This document shows, one piece after another, positions 1-6,214 of a DNA stretch of 6,214 nt. The position numbers were made by a program, and so were the translations under genes. The notes beneath the pieces were generated by a model, which worked only from the letters and a program-made list of their open reading frames with translations, was not told where the DNA came from and did not search any database. Position 1 is the stretch's first letter. The number at the start of each line of letters is the position of its first letter. Source of the DNA: a virus; IMG/VR virus record IMGVR_UViG_3300045988_026359, positions 1 to 6,214 of that record; one strand, written 5' to 3'.

Positions 1-55
1 CAGCAGACGTCATATAGTCCGTCATCTGAGTAAACGCCTGAGGAAGAGCGCGAGA
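1..55. repeat. Terminal direct repeat, copy 1; circular-genome closure overlap
   Basis: The 55 nt cagcagacgtcatatagtccgtcatctgagtaaacgcctgaggaagagcgcgaga at 1..55 are identical, base for base, to 6160..6214. The capsid reading frame runs through the junction without interruption. Confidence 0.97.
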
Positions 56-304
56 AATCAAGCGTAACGGCACAGCATAAAAGTCATAATACTCTTTAAT
101 ACGAGTATATGCAGCCGTATTAACGGGAACAGTACGAGTAAACCACTCAGAAGAAATACGATATTTGTTACCAGGAATAGCAATCTGCCAATAACAAGGA
201 AGGATCTCTCCGACTTTTGCCGTAAATAGTTTTTTGCTAGACAAATCAAAGGAAGAGCGATGAACGGCAATTTTCGCTCGATCCAACGGATTAAAATCAC
301 TCAT
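1..304 (-). CDS. VP1: Major capsid protein VP1 (phiX174 F homologue), N-terminal segment; continues across the circular junction into 4730..6214
   Basis: My hand translation of the reverse complement from the ATG at 302..304 gives MSDFNPLDRAKIAVHRSSFDLSSKKLFTAKVGEILPCYWQIAIPGNKYRISSEWFTRTVPVNTAAYTRIKEYYDFYAVPLRLISRALPQAFTQMTDYMTSA with no stop before position 1. It joins in frame to the 484-aa ORF, since 6184 is equivalent to 25 and both are 1 mod 3. The N-terminal pattern R-S-x-F-D-L-S ... K-x-G-E-L/I-x-P ... P-G-D/N ... R-T-x-P ... Y-D-F-x-x-V-P is typical of Microviridae capsid proteins. The ORF track misses this segment because it runs off the window edge. Confidence 0.93.
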   Translation of the reverse strand, partial: MSDFNPLDRAKIAVHRSSFDLSSKKLFTAKVGEILPCYWQIAIPGNKYRISSEWFTRTVPVNTAAYTRIKEYYDFYAVPLRLISRALPQAFTQMTDYMTSA

Positions 305-325
305 AAATAATTAAAAATTAACAAG

Positions 326-2146
326 TTAAATCATCTGGTTAAATATATCATTCGCGTCATTAAGCTTCTTATGCTTGATCATATCGCGGCAGAAGGTAGC
401 AGCACGGAAATCAAGACATCTTTGTAAATCGCTACTTTGCCTACTATCATAGGCACTTCTTGTATCGGGTTTCGCGGATTTGATGTAATTACAAGCCGCG
501 AGAAATGGGATTCGGGGGTCATCAAACGGAACGCATACCTGTTCTTTAATGGGACGAACAAATCCGTCTGCATATTCTCCGTCTTCTCCGATACCAATGG
601 TCGCCATTTCGCATCCTTCGGCTGGTACATAGAAATACCGAAGCATAGGGGCTGGCAAAGTCTGTTGTATTCGCAACGAATCACACATTCGTACATAGTC
701 CGCTTTCTTTTCATATTCTATTCCAGTTTTGAGGATAAAATCAATACGACTGGCATAAGAATCAAGATTGCCACCAATGGGAGGCAAATGCCAGTTCCTA
801 AGGAACTTACTGACATAAAGGAATAGCCGATATAACTTATTAATATAAGATTCAATATCGACATCAGAAGAACTGTTACAGAGCCTAGTAAGGCACCGAG
901 CATTATGTAATATAATTTCGTCTTCATTGGGTAAATGATGATTCAATGTAAGATACTGATAATAAGCACGAACAATAGAAAGGACAGAATCAGAATCATA
1001 ATCTATGATACCGAACCTTGCAATTCTTTTTGGCGCGCTTGCAACAGCTCGAATAATTCCAGCAATCGCAATAGCATCGTCATAACGAGCACTTGAGAAT
1101 CGGGGGAGTAAGGTACGGATATACGACATGGGGGGAGTTGAGTTAACACTAATCCCGTTGAAGTTATAGATTCGTCCATTAATGACAGAATCGATCTTTT
1201 GTTCAATCGCGTGATAGATGTCTTCACTCTCCTCAAAAACCTCGCCTTTCTCAAAAAATCCAATAGACGCTCTTTGGCGGGGTTTAAACGCACGACATGA
1301 TCTATATAACAGGGGAGTAGAGCAAGAGCTATTAATGTAACCCGCAACGTACGATGCAGCTCCACCGCGGGAAGTCTGGAAATCTGAACGACCGAGCTTC
1401 CAACTCTTATCATGACACTGTCGTAATACCTTTGGGATCTGTTCCGAGTTTGTGAATAGTAAGATATGATAATGCGGGCGGAAATGGACTGGTCCATATT
1501 CACCCACAGCGTAGAAATGTAACGTCTCATAAGAACCTAAAACCGTTTTTAAATGTTTACGCAATCGTTTAATATAATTCTGAACATCAACATAATTCAA
1601 ATAAGGGATAAGATTATCTCCGTATCTAGCGGAAAGTTCTCCTTCTTTACCGTAAGGCGTAGCGGACTGCGTCTTAGCAATAAAGGAACGGATAGCATCC
1701 ATAGAAAGAAACCAATTATCCTTAACCGGTTCATGCTGACCTGATTCACGGTTATACGGAACTGTACCCTGTACTTGTGTAAAGTATATATGACGCAATT
1801 GTTGTGAATCTGAGCAACTATACTCGGATACCGGGACACACGAATGTTTTTCATAACCATAAACAAAACCGGAATCACTTAAAACATCGTCGTATTCAGA
1901 GTGGTGCACCTCGCAATTAAACAACGGAATGTGCTCATTATCATAGGTGAGCGTAACAAACCAACAATGTTCGAAGGCACTTCCAGCGGTCTTCACACGC
2001 ATAGACGCCTTTTGAGCTCGCTTATGGATACAATAGTCGCATTGACCACAATCTACAGCGATACGCTTACCCGTATATCTGTTGGTAATAAATGAGCGAT
2101 GCTGACAATGATCAGCAGCTTTAAGCAACTCCGGTGTATATTTCAT
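326..2146 (-). CDS. VP4: Replication initiation protein VP4 (HUH rolling-circle endonuclease, phiX174 A homologue), 606 aa
   Basis: N-terminal Cys cluster CGQCDYC. Motif I FVTLTY at 1943..1960. KRLRK box. Motif II RPHYHILLF, with H-Y-H at 1466..1474. Motif III with two Tyr three residues apart, YVAGYINS (Y-V-A-G-Y at 1337..1351), comparable to the phiX174 A active-site Y-x-x-x-Y. I verified all of these by translating the stated coordinates by hand. Confidence 0.93.
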   Translation of the reverse strand: MKYTPELLKAADHCQHRSFITNRYTGKRIAVDCGQCDYCIHKRAQKASMRVKTAGSAFEHCWFVTLTYDNEHIPLFNCEVHHSEYDDVLSDSGFVYGYEKHSCVPVSEYSCSDSQQLRHIYFTQVQGTVPYNRESGQHEPVKDNWFLSMDAIRSFIAKTQSATPYGKEGELSARYGDNLIPYLNYVDVQNYIKRLRKHLKTVLGSYETLHFYAVGEYGPVHFRPHYHILLFTNSEQIPKVLRQCHDKSWKLGRSDFQTSRGGAASYVAGYINSSCSTPLLYRSCRAFKPRQRASIGFFEKGEVFEESEDIYHAIEQKIDSVINGRIYNFNGISVNSTPPMSYIRTLLPRFSSARYDDAIAIAGIIRAVASAPKRIARFGIIDYDSDSVLSIVRAYYQYLTLNHHLPNEDEIILHNARCLTRLCNSSSDVDIESYINKLYRLFLYVSKFLRNWHLPPIGGNLDSYASRIDFILKTGIEYEKKADYVRMCDSLRIQQTLPAPMLRYFYVPAEGCEMATIGIGEDGEYADGFVRPIKEQVCVPFDDPRIPFLAACNYIKSAKPDTRSAYDSRQSSDLQRCLDFRAATFCRDMIKHKKLNDANDIFNQMI

Positions 2147-2151
2147 AATTA

Positions 2152-2457
2152 TTATCTTTTATCAATCACTTGGCGACGACTACGCGGACCAAACGAAACA
2201 TGAATAAAACCAGAGTAAATGATAAGTTGGTCAAAAGGAGAAGCATAATCAGAATAACTATGAATCAACTCAAGCAACTTACTAAAACCAGTAGAACCGT
2301 AAGGTTTGATATCAATAGCTTCACCTATCAGATGTTGAGAATTAGGAGCGCCATTACAAGCCTTGTTCTGTTCAGGAGTACGCCTCGCACTAGTCACCGT
2401 AAAATGAGCGTTAGAATAAAGCAAATACTCAAGGAAACACATAAGGGAATAGTTCAT
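2152..2457 (-). CDS. Peptidase M15 family (Peptidase_M15_3 / LAS-type zinc D-Ala-D-Ala peptidase-like) cell-wall hydrolase, 101 aa; candidate endolysin
   Basis: The sequence ...VTSARRTPEQNKACNGAPNSQHLIGEAIDI... contains the S-x-H-x-x-G-x-A-x-D zinc-binding signature exactly (SQHLIGEAID, 2311..2340). It is preceded by the S-x-R-T/S-P-E-x-N segment typical of this family. The distal His sits in FIHVS (His at 2200..2202). The start ATG overlaps the stop of the upstream small ORF (TTATGA). The stop lies 5 nt before the VP4 ATG. Confidence 0.88.
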   Translation of the reverse strand: MNYSLMCFLEYLLYSNAHFTVTSARRTPEQNKACNGAPNSQHLIGEAIDIKPYGSTGFSKLLELIHSYSDYASPFDQLIIYSGFIHVSFGPRSRRQVIDKR

Positions 2458-2537
2458 AATCCGATAGCATTAAGAATGTAACCAAGCGCAGCAGAAACAG
2501 CACCAATTATAATTTTCCAAATATTATTACTTTTCAT
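2454..2537 (-). CDS. Small hydrophobic micro-ORF, 27 aa (MKSNNIWKIIIGAVSAALGYILNAIGL), with one predicted transmembrane helix; possible holin-like or membrane partner of the peptidase
   Basis: The ATG at 2535..2537 overlaps the last codons of the 64-aa ORF (overlap 2527..2537). Its TGA overlaps the peptidase ATG (ATGA at 2454..2457). It has a short polar N-terminus followed by about 21 uncharged, mostly hydrophobic residues. It is the 3' part of the 74-aa frame 2454..2678. Support is contextual only, because the ORF is too short for composition statistics. Confidence 0.35.
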   Translation of the reverse strand: MKSNNIWKIIIGAVSAALGYILNAIGL

Positions 2538-2721
2538 CAGCTTGAGTTTTAAGTTCGACAAAGTCATTTTCTTCTTTAATTGAATCCACAATAACAATAA
2601 GACCCAACGAAGAAACTCGCTCAGAATAATATCCAAGATCATCCAAAGAATTGACAATATAAGGCGGTATGACATCACGACCAGTCTGTTTTTCTTTAAG
2701 GGAAATAATAAATTTCAGCAT
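2527..2721 (-). CDS. Hypothetical protein, 64 aa, acidic
   Basis: It is the first ORF downstream of the long non-coding region on the coding strand. Its composition looks like a balanced globular protein (MLKFIISLKEKQTGRDVIPPYIVNSLDDLGYYSERVSSLGLIVIVDSIKEENDFVELKTQADEK). It packs tightly against the following ORFs. I recognise no motif in it. Confidence 0.5.
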   Translation of the reverse strand: MLKFIISLKEKQTGRDVIPPYIVNSLDDLGYYSERVSSLGLIVIVDSIKEENDFVELKTQADEK

Positions 2722-2772
2722 AATTGTAAAATTTTAAATGTTAATAATTTAACGAGTTGGTTTCTACAGGGG

Positions 2773-2803
2773 CAAAGGAAAGCATTATTTTCGAATAAAC
2801 AAA
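2773..2803 (-). promoter_or_regulatory. Candidate Bacteroidota-type promoter (-33 TTTG, 19-nt spacer, -7-like TTCCTTTG)
   Basis: The minus strand reads TTTG (complement of 2800..2803), then 19 nt, then TTCCTTTG (complement of 2773..2780). The Bacteroides consensus is TTTG-N19-21-TAnnTTTG, so there is one mismatch (T for A). The -7-like box ends 51 nt upstream of the ATG at 2721, and the element lies downstream of the terminator-like hairpin. The call depends on a host assignment that is itself inferred. Confidence 0.25.
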
Positions 2804-2868
2804 ATATTTCGGAGTTTTTTATTCTACGGTTAGGGTGTGAGTTGTGCGTTTATGGACAAGAGAGACCG

Positions 2869-2891
2869 AATTTGAGATGATAACTCAAATT
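2869..2891. repeat. Inverted repeat / stem-loop (8-bp stem, 7-nt loop)
   Basis: aatttgag (2869..2876) pairs perfectly with ctcaaatt (2884..2891), with loop atgataa. It is flanked by a further 7-bp complementarity, agttgtg (2840..2846) with cacaact (2901..2907). Confidence 0.6.
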
Positions 2892-2924
2892 TCCTCCGGA
2901 CACAACTAGGGGCTTCGCTTGATT

Positions 2925-2966
2925 AAAACAAAAAAAAGTCCTAGATCCATTACTAATAGATCCAGG
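2925..2966 (-). terminator. Intrinsic-terminator-like hairpin followed by a T-tract on the coding strand
   Basis: The minus strand reads CCTGGATC-tattagtaatg-GATCTAGG-AC-TTTTTTTTGTTTT. The stem pairs 2959..2966 with 2940..2947. It has 8 pairs, one of which is G:T(U) on the minus strand but an A:C mismatch on the plus strand, so the structure favours the coding strand. The loop is 11 nt. The T8-G-T4 tract is the complement of 2925..2937. Confidence 0.5.
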
Positions 2967-2996
2967 GCGTGGATGCATACAAAGGTGTATAGGCAC

Positions 2997-3018
2997 GGCA
3001 GGTCAGATAGAACCTGCC
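2997..3018. repeat. Inverted repeat / stem-loop (7-bp stem, 8-nt loop)
   Basis: ggcaggt (2997..3003) pairs perfectly with acctgcc (3012..3018), with loop cagataga. Confidence 0.6.
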
Positions 3019-3043
3019 TTTGCGCACCTACGTGCTAAAATAC

Positions 3044-3077
3044 CGAAGCGAAACGCTTCTCCAAGGAAGTCGCTTCG
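3044..3077. repeat. Nested or alternative stem-loops built from GAAGCG/CGCTTC repeats
   Basis: Inner hairpin: gaagcg (3045..3050), aaa loop, cgcttc (3054..3059). Competing outer helix: cgaagcga (3044..3051) with tcgcttcg (3070..3077), 8 bp, plus cttc (3056..3059) with gaag (3066..3069). A further gcttcgct copy sits at 2912..2919, matching 3072..3079. Confidence 0.6.
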
Positions 3078-3103
3078 CTCCGTTTTATAAAGGCCCTACG
3101 CGG

Positions 3104-3136
3104 GCGGCGGGTGTATATCGCTCAAACGCCGCGATA
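3104..3136. repeat. GC-rich stem-loop immediately downstream of VP2, with two mutually exclusive pairings
   Basis: gcggcg (3104..3109) pairs with cgccgc (3127..3132): 6 G:C pairs and a 17-nt loop. Alternatively tatcgc (3116..3121) pairs with gcgata (3131..3136): 6 bp and a 9-nt loop. It is the GC-richest patch in the window. Confidence 0.55.
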
Positions 3137-3154
3137 GGCTTTTAGTCCTGAAGA

Positions 3155-4276
3155 TTAATAACCTATTCCATTGGCCGAGGAAGGATTACCACGAGAACTG
3201 ATCCTTAGCTTAGGCATGTTCTGAAAGATCTTCGTACCATAATCTACAGCATTACGTAGACCATAAGTATCAAAATCCTTCTTGGCATTTCCAGCAGACC
3301 ACTTATAATAATCGCGCAAGGCCTTGTCCTTAGAATACTGCATATTCTTACGATTATTGACGTTCTTGTAGTCCCAAAGAGAATCATAATACTGTGTATA
3401 GTAAGCCATATTAGTAGCACTCATAAGAGCATCGGCAGTACCAGCAGCTATCCTATTAGAAATCTTCTGTCCTTGCGTCTGAGCAGCTATCTGGATTGCA
3501 CGTTGAAGTTCAGTTTGAACCTGGCGCTCAGTCAAAGCGCCTTGCTGTACAAGGTTATAAAGATACTGAGCTTTTGTAAACAGATCCGCTTGCTGTTGAG
3601 CATCCATATATCTATTCAGAATAACTTGAGAATCAGATTGAAGATAAATTTGCGACGTTTGAGCGGCCGAAAGCTTTCCTGCTGAAACAGCGTTCTCCAG
3701 TCGCTGACGCTCCATAGACTGATCCAACTCGGCAGATATACGGCCTGTCTGCTTATTCCAATAACCAGATTCACCGACACCTATCTGCCTATAATCCGTA
3801 TCACCTTGCATCTTCTTAATCATATACGGAGTCATAGTATCAATCTGATTAGATTCAGATATAAGCTTCTTGGCTTGAGCGAATGAGGCCAAAGCAGTAT
3901 CCACGCTTGAAAAGTCGGGATGAAAAGCCTGGGCAGGAATAGGACTAACAGCAGAAGCCTGAGCACCAGAAGGGGAAGAACCTGAGCCAGAACCAGTCTG
4001 AGCAGCAGAACCAGACATAAACGGATTCAAACCACGGGAAATCATAGCTTCAGGAGAATTATATTCTCGCGATTCATCAACCATTTTTTCTTGCCAATCA
4101 CGCTGTTTCTGGGCTTCCAGCATATTGAACTTATTAGTAGTCTGAGTATTGCGGAAATTAGCACGATTAGCGCTAGACTGTTGCAATGAACCAAAGATAC
4201 CACTAATAGCAGCACCAAGAAAATGATGTTCATTTCTAGGAGAGAGTATGCTCTCTCCAATCTCTAAATACCTCAT
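3155..4276 (-). CDS. VP2: Minor capsid / DNA pilot protein VP2 (functional analogue of phiX174 H), 373 aa
   Basis: The N-terminal Gly/Ala/Ser segment GAAISGIFGSL is followed by ANRANFRNTQTTNKFNMLEAQKQRDWQEKM...YNSPEAMISRGLNPFM. This matches the N...N...A-x-K-x-R-D/E-W-Q-E-x-M ... G-L-N-P pattern of Gokushovirinae/Alpavirinae VP2. A Ser/Gly/Ala-rich linker lies at 3929..4015, and the C-terminal part is Gln-rich and helical-looking. The ATG overlaps the upstream stop (CAATGA at 4273..4276). Confidence 0.85.
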   Translation of the reverse strand: MRYLEIGESILSPRNEHHFLGAAISGIFGSLQQSSANRANFRNTQTTNKFNMLEAQKQRDWQEKMVDESREYNSPEAMISRGLNPFMSGSAAQTGSGSGSSPSGAQASAVSPIPAQAFHPDFSSVDTALASFAQAKKLISESNQIDTMTPYMIKKMQGDTDYRQIGVGESGYWNKQTGRISAELDQSMERQRLENAVSAGKLSAAQTSQIYLQSDSQVILNRYMDAQQQADLFTKAQYLYNLVQQGALTERQVQTELQRAIQIAAQTQGQKISNRIAAGTADALMSATNMAYYTQYYDSLWDYKNVNNRKNMQYSKDKALRDYYKWSAGNAKKDFDTYGLRNAVDYGTKIFQNMPKLRISSRGNPSSANGIGY

Positions 4277-4719
4277 TGCGCACTAGCGGCAGGGGCGGTA
4301 ACCTCTTGGGCGGGCGCTGCCGTTTCCTCTGCCAGCATAGACTTGGCATATGCAGTCAACTCAGATTTCTCATTAGCCAATTGTTGTAACACAGCCTGGC
4401 GTTCAGACATAGTCTGACAATGACGAGAAATAACACAATTAAAACGTTCCTCATCCGTCATGCCGTCCATCACAGTAGATTGAGTAGGATGCATTTGAGC
4501 AAGGATATCATTGACGTTCATATCACCAAGCAAACGACGGTACTTTTCCTGGTTCAGAAGGATCTGAGTCATATCACACTGGATCAGATCACCGTCAAGA
4601 GTCTTATCATACATAACCGGATCATAAGCAGAAGCCTGGTAGCACGGATTGTCTTCCTTCAGCTCGGGAACATACGAATCTCTTTCAAAATTCTCATTTT
4701 TATAAGCAAAACTTCTCAT
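4273..4719 (-). CDS. Putative internal scaffolding protein (VP3-like) / hypothetical protein, 148 aa
   Basis: An acidic 148-aa ORF that starts at the ATG 4717..4719, 10 nt after the VP1 stop, and ends in an ATGA overlap with VP2. Its size and its position between capsid and pilot genes fit a VP3-type scaffold, but I recognise no diagnostic motif. The 190-aa version in the ORF track begins inside VP1 in another frame. An alternative start is at 4744..4746. Confidence 0.6.
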   Translation of the reverse strand: MRSFAYKNENFERDSYVPELKEDNPCYQASAYDPVMYDKTLDGDLIQCDMTQILLNQEKYRRLLGDMNVNDILAQMHPTQSTVMDGMTDEERFNCVISRHCQTMSERQAVLQQLANEKSELTAYAKSMLAEETAAPAQEVTAPAASAQ

Positions 4720-4729
4720 AATCAATACA

Positions 4730-6214
4730 TTAATAAGGTAAACCATTTCTATCCAAGTTCTGAACAGCATAAACCTGGAAATTAACATTACACAACAACT
4801 GGTCATAAGCAACGGAACAGTTCTGACCAGAAACCTGGGGATCAAAAATAGAGTTCAATTGCTGAGGACGAACTTTCATTGACCGATAAGACCAAGTACC
4901 AGAAGAAGTCAAAACATCCCAACCGTCAACAGGGGCAGACCAAGACTGATACGCCATACCAGGACGAAACGCAGCGTGAACAGTATCAATATTAGACTTC
5001 CATTGCCAGTACCGAAGATTATAACCAATAGAACCAGAAACGGAACGAGACGGGTTATTCTGTAAGTTCAAAGCAGGGACAGGCTGCATACCCAACTGAT
5101 CGAACGCAGGTTGGGGGAAATCAGTAATAGAAGTAACAGTCAACTGAGGATTTTGACCAGTCAAACTCCAGTCAACCATAGGAACAGCATGATATACACA
5201 CATAATCACTTGATGTTCAGCGCCACAATCATAAGTCAGCGTATGTCCAGACTGAGAACCAACGCCTTTACCAGCGATCACGGCTTGAGACCTGTCAGAC
5301 TCTAAGTTGGTATTCAAGACTTCATTGATATTGATCACATTAGACCAACCTCCAATATAATGAGCGTGATTTCCCATATATTCAGGAGCTTCAATTCCGA
5401 ATTGAGCCCGCATCTGATCCGAGTAATCCTTACTACTGAATTGAACTACCTCTTTCCAGCGCTGTAAGTATTCAGTTGCACGAATTGCAAGGGCAGAAAG
5501 ATCGGCAGAAACATAAGCAGAACGTGCAGAAGGAGAAGTACTATCAGACTGCACATTATTAGAATCAGCAAGATTTGAAAGACCTGAAGCCGGAGATTGA
5601 ATGTTTTCATCAGGGCTAAATACGACACGGTTAGAAACGAATGCACTAGAGTGAGAAGGCAAAACAGCTACACCACCGTACTGACTGCGCGGCAAAATAC
5701 CCATAAAGTAATCTTTCGGATAATTAGAATAACGAAGCTGAAGCATTTCGGGAGCGAGTAGCAATTGAGATTTACCGTCCCAATAATCTACATTATATGC
5801 ATAAGCCAGGTGCTTTTCCCATTGAGAGTCAGAGAAGAAATCATAGTAGATCTTCTGATAAGACAACAACGGAAGAAGATTCACAGTTTGACTAACAGAA
5901 TAAATCAAAGGATTCAACGTATCTTCAAGAGACTTAATCCCTAAATAAGATTCAGTAATAGTAGCTTTAGCAGTATTCGAAGACGCAAGGAAAGAACCAT
6001 ATCCAAGCATGTCTAATACCTTAGAGGCACCATAGACATAAGGGAGACCAGCATCATCAAAGACATCCTTATTACTAATCGACTGAAGACTCAGCGACAA
6101 CAAGTTCAACGTTGTATTCGGTACAGAAGTCAACATCTCGGTGTTAGCAGTGTTACTAACAGCAGACGTCATATAGTCCGTCATCTGAGTAAACGCCTGA
6201 GGAAGAGCGCGAGA
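4730..6214 (-). CDS. VP1: Major capsid protein VP1, C-terminal segment; the full protein is 577 aa (56..304 plus 4730..6214, stop TAA at 4730..4732)
   Basis: The frame is open from the window end down to 4730. The Met at 6184 used by the ORF track is internal (residue 94). Motifs shared by Microviridae F/VP1 proteins are present: LPLLSYQKIYYDFF, YPKDYFMGILP, LSALAIRATEYLQRWKE, RAQFGIEAPEYMGN..YIGG and AGKGVG. Confidence 0.95.
   Translation of the reverse strand, partial: SRALPQAFTQMTDYMTSAVSNTANTEMLTSVPNTTLNLLSLSLQSISNKDVFDDAGLPYVYGASKVLDMLGYGSFLASSNTAKATITESYLGIKSLEDTLNPLIYSVSQTVNLLPLLSYQKIYYDFFSDSQWEKHLAYAYNVDYWDGKSQLLLAPEMLQLRYSNYPKDYFMGILPRSQYGGVAVLPSHSSAFVSNRVVFSPDENIQSPASGLSNLADSNNVQSDSTSPSARSAYVSADLSALAIRATEYLQRWKEVVQFSSKDYSDQMRAQFGIEAPEYMGNHAHYIGGWSNVININEVLNTNLESDRSQAVIAGKGVGSQSGHTLTYDCGAEHQVIMCVYHAVPMVDWSLTGQNPQLTVTSITDFPQPAFDQLGMQPVPALNLQNNPSRSVSGSIGYNLRYWQWKSNIDTVHAAFRPGMAYQSWSAPVDGWDVLTSSGTWSYRSMKVRPQQLNSIFDPQVSGQNCSVAYDQLLCNVNFQVYAVQNLDRNGLPY
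6160..6214. repeat. Terminal direct repeat, copy 2; circular-genome closure overlap
   Basis: Exact 55-nt duplicate of 1..55. This gives a unit genome length of 6159 nt. An exact end overlap of fixed length is what a circular contig written out linearly looks like. Confidence 0.97.

Follow-up and report, generated by a model that had tools for sequence, protein, structure and literature searches.

Results

An overlooked 27-codon gene overlaps the peptidase gene

We analysed a 6,214-nucleotide (nt) stretch of viral DNA (IMG/VR record IMGVR_UViG_3300045988_026359, the whole of which is hereafter called the window), in which an initial annotation had singled out a stand-alone M15 zinc peptidase as a candidate endolysin in a microvirus. 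The peptidase open reading frame (ORF) is part of a minus-strand run of four genes, ORF64-TM27-peptidase-Rep, the second of which is an unannotated gene that we call TM27. The initial annotation missed both this gene, which is the obvious candidate for the membrane route of the enzyme, and the existence of close relatives that have no peptidase. The features on which our analysis centres are as follows, with residue numbers referring to the peptidase.

2454..2537, minus strand: TM27, unannotated 27-codon gene, MKSNNIWKIIIGAVSAALGYILNAIGL, recognised by translation, hydropathy and conservation; candidate holin-like or single-gene-lysis-like peptide
2152..2457, minus strand: minimal M15_3/M15A (LAS) zinc peptidase of 101 amino acids (aa), candidate accessory endolysin, recognised by Pfam, PHROG, AlphaFold2 (AF2), Foldseek and purifying selection
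2311..2340, minus strand: S40-x-H42-x-x-G45-x-A47-x-D49 motif (SQHLIGEAID, residues 40-49) with the predicted first two zinc ligands, H42 and D49
2194..2202, minus strand: H86-V-S88, the predicted distal zinc-ligand His followed by a branch-typical Ser

TM27 is read in a different frame from ORF64, its ATG lying 11 nt inside the end of that gene, and its TGA overlaps the ATG of the peptidase (…GGA TTA TGA AC…, with TTATGA at the junction). The encoded peptide begins with a short basic segment, after which a single hydrophobic stretch of 19 residues extends to the C-terminus (Kyte-Doolittle mean of 2.03) and forms a predicted transmembrane helix rich in small residues (G/A/S). Of the 82 loci listed that had been fetched via the peptidase alone, and are hence unbiased for TM27, most carry the gene with the same ATGA-type overlap. 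Among the 73 unique sequences, its reading frame is open in 72 and starts with ATG in 68. Substitution entropy by codon position (0.34/0.09/0.81) revealed a 3-nt periodicity, and the ratio of synonymous to nonsynonymous codon changes was 325:89 in the TM27 frame, versus 63:360 and 10:411 in the other two frames. TM27 is under strong purifying selection, with a tighter constraint than that on the peptidase, and we regard it as nearly certain that it is a genuine protein-coding gene.

Counterparts of TM27 also stand before more divergent peptidases. The marmot microvirus mar56, whose peptidase is 50% identical to that of the window, carries MKRNWIKILIGAVSAALGYVLNSLGL as the TM27 counterpart, and Dulem viruses 257 and 236 as well as bajarodmic virus 410 (peptidases 48-55% identical) encode a diverged peptide of the same design, MKSETKSKIWSAIIAAAVSLLTSIAQIFS, in the same place. 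In PQ006527, PP511646 and PP511776, the MKSETKSKIWSAIIAAAVSLLTSIAQIFS version lies just upstream of the peptidase, and its stop is followed by one codon and then by the peptidase ATG in the same frame, so that the two genes are in tandem and do not overlap. All TM27 homologues were located on contigs of microvirus size. In the GenBank records that we examined, TM27 either lacks an annotation or has been mistaken for part of the peptidase, whose N-terminus is then extended across it (PP511396 and PP511332). In the peptidase entries of these two records (3935-4309 and 3985-4359, respectively), the 21-residue extension is an out-of-frame reading of TM27, and the other records show a "gap" of about 70 nt at its position. 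Gene callers applied to metagenomes sometimes return TM27 as a 37-aa or a 73-74-aa form, without a useful name. Searches of Pfam, PHROG and NCBIfam with TM27 gave no significant match (best PHROG E-values 0.13-0.4), and our literature search found no description of the gene.

Two other readings of this ORF were considered and rejected. The first is a fusion of TM27 to the peptidase by readthrough or frameshifting, which would yield a signal-anchored endolysin. Relative to TM27, the peptidase is read in the -1 frame; in the window, this frame is closed by a stop five codons ahead of the peptidase ATG, and the junction (…ATC GGA TTA TGA) holds no X XXY YYZ slippery site. The peptidase ATG and the ATGA-type overlap are both conserved, in accordance with translation by reinitiation. 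The second is a 74-aa form of the TM27 ORF started by GTG, whose upstream part is ORF64 read out of frame and is poorly conserved; this form is further disfavoured by the first Met of MKSNN, which is encoded by ATG in 68/73 of the unique sequences.

The 101-aa protein is a trimmed LAS-type peptidase with a predicted metal triad

The peptidase ORF begins with ATG and comprises 101 codons, its product starting with MNYSLMCFLEYLLYSNAH, and the Rep start lies 5 nt past its stop codon, in keeping with the position directly upstream of rep given in the initial annotation. The assignment to an M15_3-type domain, made there from the letters alone, was borne out by a hidden Markov model (HMM) search, in which Pfam PF08291 (Peptidase_M15_3) scored 36.9 bits against a gathering cut-off of 23.2 (E = 4.4e-9), far beyond chance, and PHROG 894 ("endolysin") matched with E = 1.3e-16. 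A metagenome protein collection held 1497 homologues, the best 120 of which are 82-91% identical and 101-104 aa long, many of them from contigs of about 6 kb. The exact S-x-H-x-x-G-x-A-x-D signature (SQHLIGEAID, residues 40-49), which contains the H-x6-D metal-ligand motif, and the distal His (H86) are present as had been claimed. In an alignment of 121 sequences, in which the window protein was joined by close homologues and by members of distant clusters chosen to represent them, residues R26, N31, G36, S40, H42, A47, D49 and H86 are invariant, and S23, G45, D76, Q77, I79 and R94 are nearly so. The peptidase is under purifying selection, synonymous and nonsynonymous codon changes standing at 1440:1489 in its frame versus 595:2488 and 270:2727 out of frame.

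Structure prediction with AF2 on the 121-sequence alignment produced a compact alpha/beta model (predicted local distance difference test, pLDDT, 96.8; predicted template modelling score, pTM, 0.87), in which the fold opens with a helix at residues 3-14 and H86 lies within the strand 85-88. The top Foldseek match in the PDB was the zinc DD-peptidase of Streptomyces albus, 1LBU (probability 1.0, root-mean-square deviation 2.0 A over 77 columns), followed by VanY, LdcB and the Sonic hedgehog N-domain (ShhN), and a comparison with predicted viral structures returned dozens of proteins named "Peptidase M15A", some of which come from other microviruses. The alignment profile also matched 1LBU (E = 4.9e-14), the window motif aligning with SRHMYGHAAD of that enzyme, and it paired the peptidase strand "fiHvSf" with "hiHCSv" of Hedgehog, such that H86 corresponds to the second His of the latter. 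LAS enzymes use the second His of the Hedgehog-type HIHCSV strand as their third zinc ligand, which makes H42, D49 and H86 the predicted metal triad of the peptidase. The significant M15/LAS match and the predicted LAS fold with this triad thus both came out in favour of the initial annotation. It is practically beyond doubt that the ORF product is a LAS/M15 peptidase. From its sequence, the 101-aa protein is predicted to bind zinc and to have peptidoglycan as its substrate, and we think it quite probable that it acts on peptidoglycan in lysis.

The domain had also been called minimal, and rightly so. The PF08291 match spans only positions 42-107 of the 108 in the profile, leaving the N-terminal segment (1-41) unmatched, and residue ~50 of the canonical relatives, which are 130-150 aa long, aligns with residue ~19 of the query, these relatives having some 30-35 more residues at the N-terminus. 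Because the match starts at position 42 and the longer relatives show this offset, we describe the peptidase as an N-terminally trimmed, "minimal" domain, which is a variant within the M15_3 family and not a separate family. Forms of 101-103 aa are still found in relatives down to about 50% identity. A PDB search with the C-terminal 43 residues of the peptidase returned only a spurious match to a repeat protein.

Homologues of the catalytic core (33-47% identity) are encoded by tailed phages, namely gp29 of Stenotrophomonas phage Salva, gp42 of Burkholderia phage KS9 and gp15 of Bacteroides phage BS-TP3. The Salva and KS9 endolysins adjoin holins and spanins, while that of BS-TP3 adjoins a holin, and the label "candidate endolysin" is a reasonable one because these homologues occupy the endolysin slot of holin/spanin cassettes. 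They also put into perspective two details that had been flagged as odd, both of which are real and neither of which is peculiar to the window. As noted, the peptidase has no signal peptide or anchor, the highest Kyte-Doolittle mean over 19 residues being 0.81 and no signal-like or transmembrane-like stretch occurring at its N-terminus; the tailed-phage homologues are equally signal-less, and this state is normal for holin-dependent endolysins of this M15_3 branch. Similarly, a Ser does follow the distal His-Val where an Asp (HVD) had been expected, and Ser is the norm of the branch. It is found in 119 of 120 close homologues, and in the query together with 114 representatives of distant clusters, which include non-microvirus proteins of 130-150 aa, this position is Ser in 85, Gly in 17, Ala in 8 and Asp in none (n = 115). 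The annotated endolysins of Salva and BS-TP3 read HVS and that of KS9 reads HIG. The Ser88 position is no metal ligand in the LAS fold. We therefore rejected Ser88 as a mark of inactivation, the residue being usual in homologues, present in the HVS endolysins of tailed phages and aligned with Hedgehog HIHCSV. The idea that the N-terminus of the peptidase conceals a signal or an anchor was rejected as well, in view of the hydropathy maximum of 0.81 and of residues 3-14 belonging to the fold.

That such a peptidase would probably not be unprecedented in a microvirus was correct and even understated. In 11 human-associated Alpavirinae and Gokushovirinae, Roux et al. (2012) came across genes for M15_3 peptidases, for which they proposed the same endolysin role and argued a horizontal acquisition (PMC3394797), and annotation of such genes has been routine since. 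Kirchberger et al. (2022) list peptidases among the lysis-associated accessory genes of microviruses, in an analysis from which overprinted genes were omitted (PMC9239249). An M15A metallopeptidase is encoded by the cultured Bacteroides fragilis microvirus phiHBP1 (PMC13064476), and M15 peptidases are encoded by marine roseophage microviruses, in which peptidase-less subgroups were noted (PMC11499846). None of these four reports describes an enzymatic or genetic test of the peptidase. In GenBank, the "peptidase" of OP549867 (Microvirus sp.) is 88% identical to ours over 101 aa. Hence, the peptidase type is already known in gut microviruses and is not new.

Some related genomes keep TM27 and have no peptidase

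A degenerate DNA pattern written to capture the core of TM27 had 109 matches among viral contigs. A peptidase gene follows TM27 in 99 of them. Eight others are related microvirus contigs in which ORF64 and TM27 are followed directly by rep, and the remaining two are one unrelated contig and one genome with a variant-motif peptidase. Neither tblastn nor a profile HMM detected an M15 gene anywhere in the eight ORF64-TM27-rep contigs, three of which (L091, L128 and L138) carry terminal repeats and are complete circles. The existence of three complete genomes with no peptidase gene argues that the peptidase may be dispensable for host lysis in this lineage.

At the site of the peptidase, these contigs have in common a T-rich spacer, conserved and about 50-60 nt long, and no decayed gene. 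The spacer between TM27 and rep reads …TTGATTTTATTGTTTATTT…CAGGCTCTTGGTTAT-ATG in L091, L128, L138, L146, L161, L169 and L177, and in most spacer-bearing contigs TM27 ends in …SAIGV in place of …NAIGL. The common spacer and TM27 ending suggest a single alternative allele of the region that has been moved by recombination. When the genomes were clustered by Rep identity, those without the peptidase were interspersed among those with it, their nearest neighbours being 86-94% identical, and on this ground we consider the peptidase a cassette that is gained, lost or recombined. Since relatives keep TM27 without the peptidase, TM27 would be the core element and the peptidase an optional cassette between TM27 and rep.

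Genome layout and neighbouring genes

The window represents a complete circular microvirus genome. Its ends (1-55 and 6160-6214) are identical, and because this 55-nt terminal direct repeat was left by the assembly, the true genome length is 6159 nt. Gene assignments from the ORF list and from Pfam and PHROG searches place all genes on the minus strand, in the order VP1 (capsid), VP3-like scaffold, VP2 (pilot), a non-coding stretch, ORF64, the peptidase ORF and Rep. VP1 starts at ~304 (minus strand) and wraps around the circle junction to 4730; the 484-aa VP1 ORF in the list is only the portion after the junction, and about 100 N-terminal residues of the protein come from 304..2, likewise on the minus strand. 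The closest GenBank records are microviruses from faeces or otherwise associated with mammals, and they have an identical gene order. The neighbouring features are listed below.

326..2146, minus strand: Rep/VP4 replication initiator (Pfam PF23343, 3.7e-16; PHROG 942, 2.2e-35)
2527..2721, minus strand: ORF64, an acidic 64-aa protein that heads the ORF64-TM27-peptidase-Rep run and whose final 11 nt overlap the TM27 start
2722-3154, especially 2840-3155, minus strand: non-coding stretch of ~430 nt from VP2 to ORF64, with hairpins and a raised GC content

ORF64 had no match in Pfam, PHROG or NCBIfam searches; it is kept in relatives with and without the peptidase, where it is annotated as "hypothetical protein". 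In phiHBP1, a 54-aa ORF precedes the peptidase and contains a "…ILDSI…" pattern that resembles ORF64. The VP2-ORF64 stretch has a GC content of 0.475 (0.414 for the genome) and several stable hairpins, with a minimum free energy of -55.6 kcal/mol when folded as single-stranded DNA (z = -5.3 versus shuffles). An Rfam search of the window, this stretch included, gave no match. This structured stretch may serve as an origin for the complementary strand or hold a set of terminators. No match to the Bacteroides-type promoter motif TTTG-N17-21-TAnnTTTG was present in the window. Regarding the host, a search for prophages among 185,579 species genomes returned no relatives of the peptidase, and VP1 found only copies of 26-27% identity on two contigs of Prevotella metagenome-assembled genomes; this likeness of VP1 is a weak hint of a possible Bacteroidota host.

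Discussion

TM27 as a candidate lysis trigger and the peptidase as a candidate booster

We lean, if only modestly, towards a reading in which TM27 starts lysis, as a holin-like or single-gene-lysis-like peptide, and the peptidase is an optional, translationally coupled booster that degrades the wall. According to this proposal, the peptidase would be made by termination-reinitiation coupling right after TM27, and TM27 would insert into the inner membrane with its basic N-terminus predicted on the cytoplasmic side. Late in infection, TM27 would compromise the membrane, either through holin-like lesions or by inhibiting a membrane step of wall synthesis, a mode for which the 37-residue LysM, reported to block MurJ, is a precedent. 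Membrane damage by TM27 would begin lysis and would let the soluble peptidase reach the murein, where the enzyme would cut stem peptides or cross-links of the peptidoglycan and thereby speed or complete lysis and the release of progeny. That TM27 acts on the membrane and that the peptidase depends on it are both putative steps of this scheme, and we give even chances to TM27 providing the enzyme with its access to the wall. A bolder version, in which TM27 alone lyses the host and the M15 peptidase is a plug-in booster, the two genes forming a cassette of ~390 nt that is a hybrid of single-gene and holin-endolysin lysis, is tentative and on balance doubtful.

Several features of the two genes fit this proposal. 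The peptidase has, by its sequence, the peptidoglycan-hydrolase domain without a secretion signal that is expected of an endolysin, and TM27 is small, has one predicted transmembrane domain and is encoded by a gene that adjoins (and overlaps) that of the candidate endolysin, as is expected of a holin. Other observations weigh against it. TM27 lacks holin hallmarks, being only 27 aa long and having no significant similarity to a holin family and no charged hydrophilic C-terminal tail, because its helix runs to the C-terminus (…NAIGL). A globular enzyme of ~11 kDa needs large membrane lesions, and those ascribed to TM27 are hypothetical only; moreover, the missing N-terminal segment might matter for peptidase activity. 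The persistence of TM27 without the peptidase implies that it is not a dedicated partner and that it could have a non-lysis role. Finally, there is no TM27-like gene beside the M15 peptidase in the distant microviruses phiHBP1 and mar63. A scan for small hydrophobic ORFs at distant microvirus peptidases yielded only noise and is uninformative, because hydrophobic ORFs arise abundantly by chance in these AT-rich genomes. In one such microvirus (PQ006251), the gap from rep to an M15 peptidase of 158 aa is filled by a strongly hydrophobic 47-aa ORF (1058-1201), which may be an independent membrane partner, although hydrophobic ORFs of chance origin are common in these genomes.

The most serious competitor is that TM27 has nothing to do with lysis, serving instead, for example, to tether replication or assembly to the membrane or to prevent superinfection, with the peptidase reaching the wall through a phage or host factor or by leakage. 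The retention of TM27 in peptidase-less genomes, its lack of homology to holins and the presence of a peptidase without an adjacent TM27 in phiHBP1 and mar63 would all accord with such a role. Nevertheless, the overlap between the TM27 stop and the peptidase start is kept in most of the loci listed, a diverged transmembrane peptide occupies the same position before divergent peptidases, and no other candidate membrane gene was seen in this genome of ~6.2 kb. The peptidase-less genomes, too, still require a lysis function, for which TM27 is the sole conserved membrane-protein candidate. We therefore consider a role of TM27 outside lysis rather unlikely.

An improbable alternative is that the peptidase stays in the cytoplasm and, like VanX/VanY, trims D-Ala-D-Ala from soluble or lipid-linked precursors, so that transpeptidation is starved and the cell lyses as if treated with a "protein antibiotic", export being unnecessary. 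This idea would explain the lack of a signal peptide and draws on the fold, since the nearest solved structure (1LBU) is a muramoyl-pentapeptide DD-carboxypeptidase and the fold matches include VanY and VanXY, as well as on the classical lysis of small phages by blocked wall synthesis. However, signal-less homologues with the same motif belong to canonical holin-endolysin-spanin cassettes and act in the periplasm, and a coupled neighbouring membrane peptide is better explained by a role in export or access; nor does sequence reveal substrate specificity.

More improbable still is a use of the peptidase in entry or for another non-lysis purpose, such as local digestion of the wall at infection or remodelling of the host wall: M15A domains do occur inside tail and baseplate proteins of tailed phages (BFVD matches to Gp5 OB-fold fusions and proteins of 500-1200 aa), yet we saw no sign of the 101-aa protein being joined to a virion protein or packaged with one, and its gene is placed between the non-structural ORF64/TM27 and rep. 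That the protein is an inactive remnant being lost, as the ~30-35 missing N-terminal residues and the relatives without a peptidase might be taken to indicate, is scarcely credible given the invariant triad and motif residues, the clear in-frame purifying selection, the confident and compact AF2 model and the upkeep of the 101-104-aa form in the best 120 of the 1497 homologues (82-91% identical) and of the 101-103-aa form down to ~50% identity.

In itself, the peptidase adds little, M15 peptidases of microviruses having been on record and annotated since 2012. What gives the locus its value is the combination of a near-invariant, overlooked membrane peptide of 27 residues, a coupled minimal candidate endolysin and natural genomes with and without the enzyme. 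Microviruses other than those of the phiX174 type rank among the most abundant phages of the mammalian gut, and in the literature that we searched we found no experimental answer as to how they lyse their hosts. The question of gut-microvirus lysis is thereby made directly testable by simple expression experiments. If TM27 is indeed the lysis trigger, it would be a very small peptide that acts on membranes or blocks wall synthesis in gut anaerobes. In that case, the enzyme, with its 101 aa, would rank with the smallest LAS-type lysins, and a gene would have to be added to hundreds of public microvirus records.

Comparison with known systems

The gut Microviridae of Roux et al. (2012), OP549867, the Dulem viruses and phiHBP1 have peptidases of the same family, in the same kind of virus and with the same proposed endolysin role as that of the window. 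OP549867 also shares with the window the gene order VP1-VP3-VP2-ORF64-peptidase-Rep, whereas phiHBP1 differs in having a full-length enzyme of 134 aa after rep and no TM27. Unlike the present analysis, the literature and GenBank records that we examined on microvirus peptidases give no TM27 gene. With 1LBU (MEROPS M15A) and the LAS group (VanY, LdcB, Hedgehog N-domain), the window protein has the fold and the metal-ligand motifs in common, but 1LBU is a secreted bacterial enzyme with an extra N-terminal wall-binding domain.

The endolysins of Salva, KS9 and BS-TP3 resemble the window protein in the S-x-H-x-x-G-x-A-x-D motif, the distal H-[VI]-[SG] and the lack of a signal peptide, and their genes likewise lie beside genes for membrane proteins. 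They differ in length (132-149 aa), possessing the N-terminal segment that the window protein lacks, and their partners are multi-pass holins of 100-160 aa (with spanins in Salva and KS9), in contrast to the 27-aa peptide of the window. As for TM27, it is akin to the lysis peptides of the phiX174 E and LysM type in being a very short membrane peptide, predicted to be single-pass, from a tiny phage genome; LysM of levivirus M, which has 37 residues, is reported to act within the membrane and to block MurJ. TM27 also recalls holin genes in that it adjoins a wall-hydrolase gene. Yet it has no sequence similarity to phiX174 E, LysM or holins, it is not embedded in another gene, overlapping its neighbours by only 11 nt and 4 nt, and with 27 aa it is shorter than the characterised single-gene lysis peptides and holins named here.

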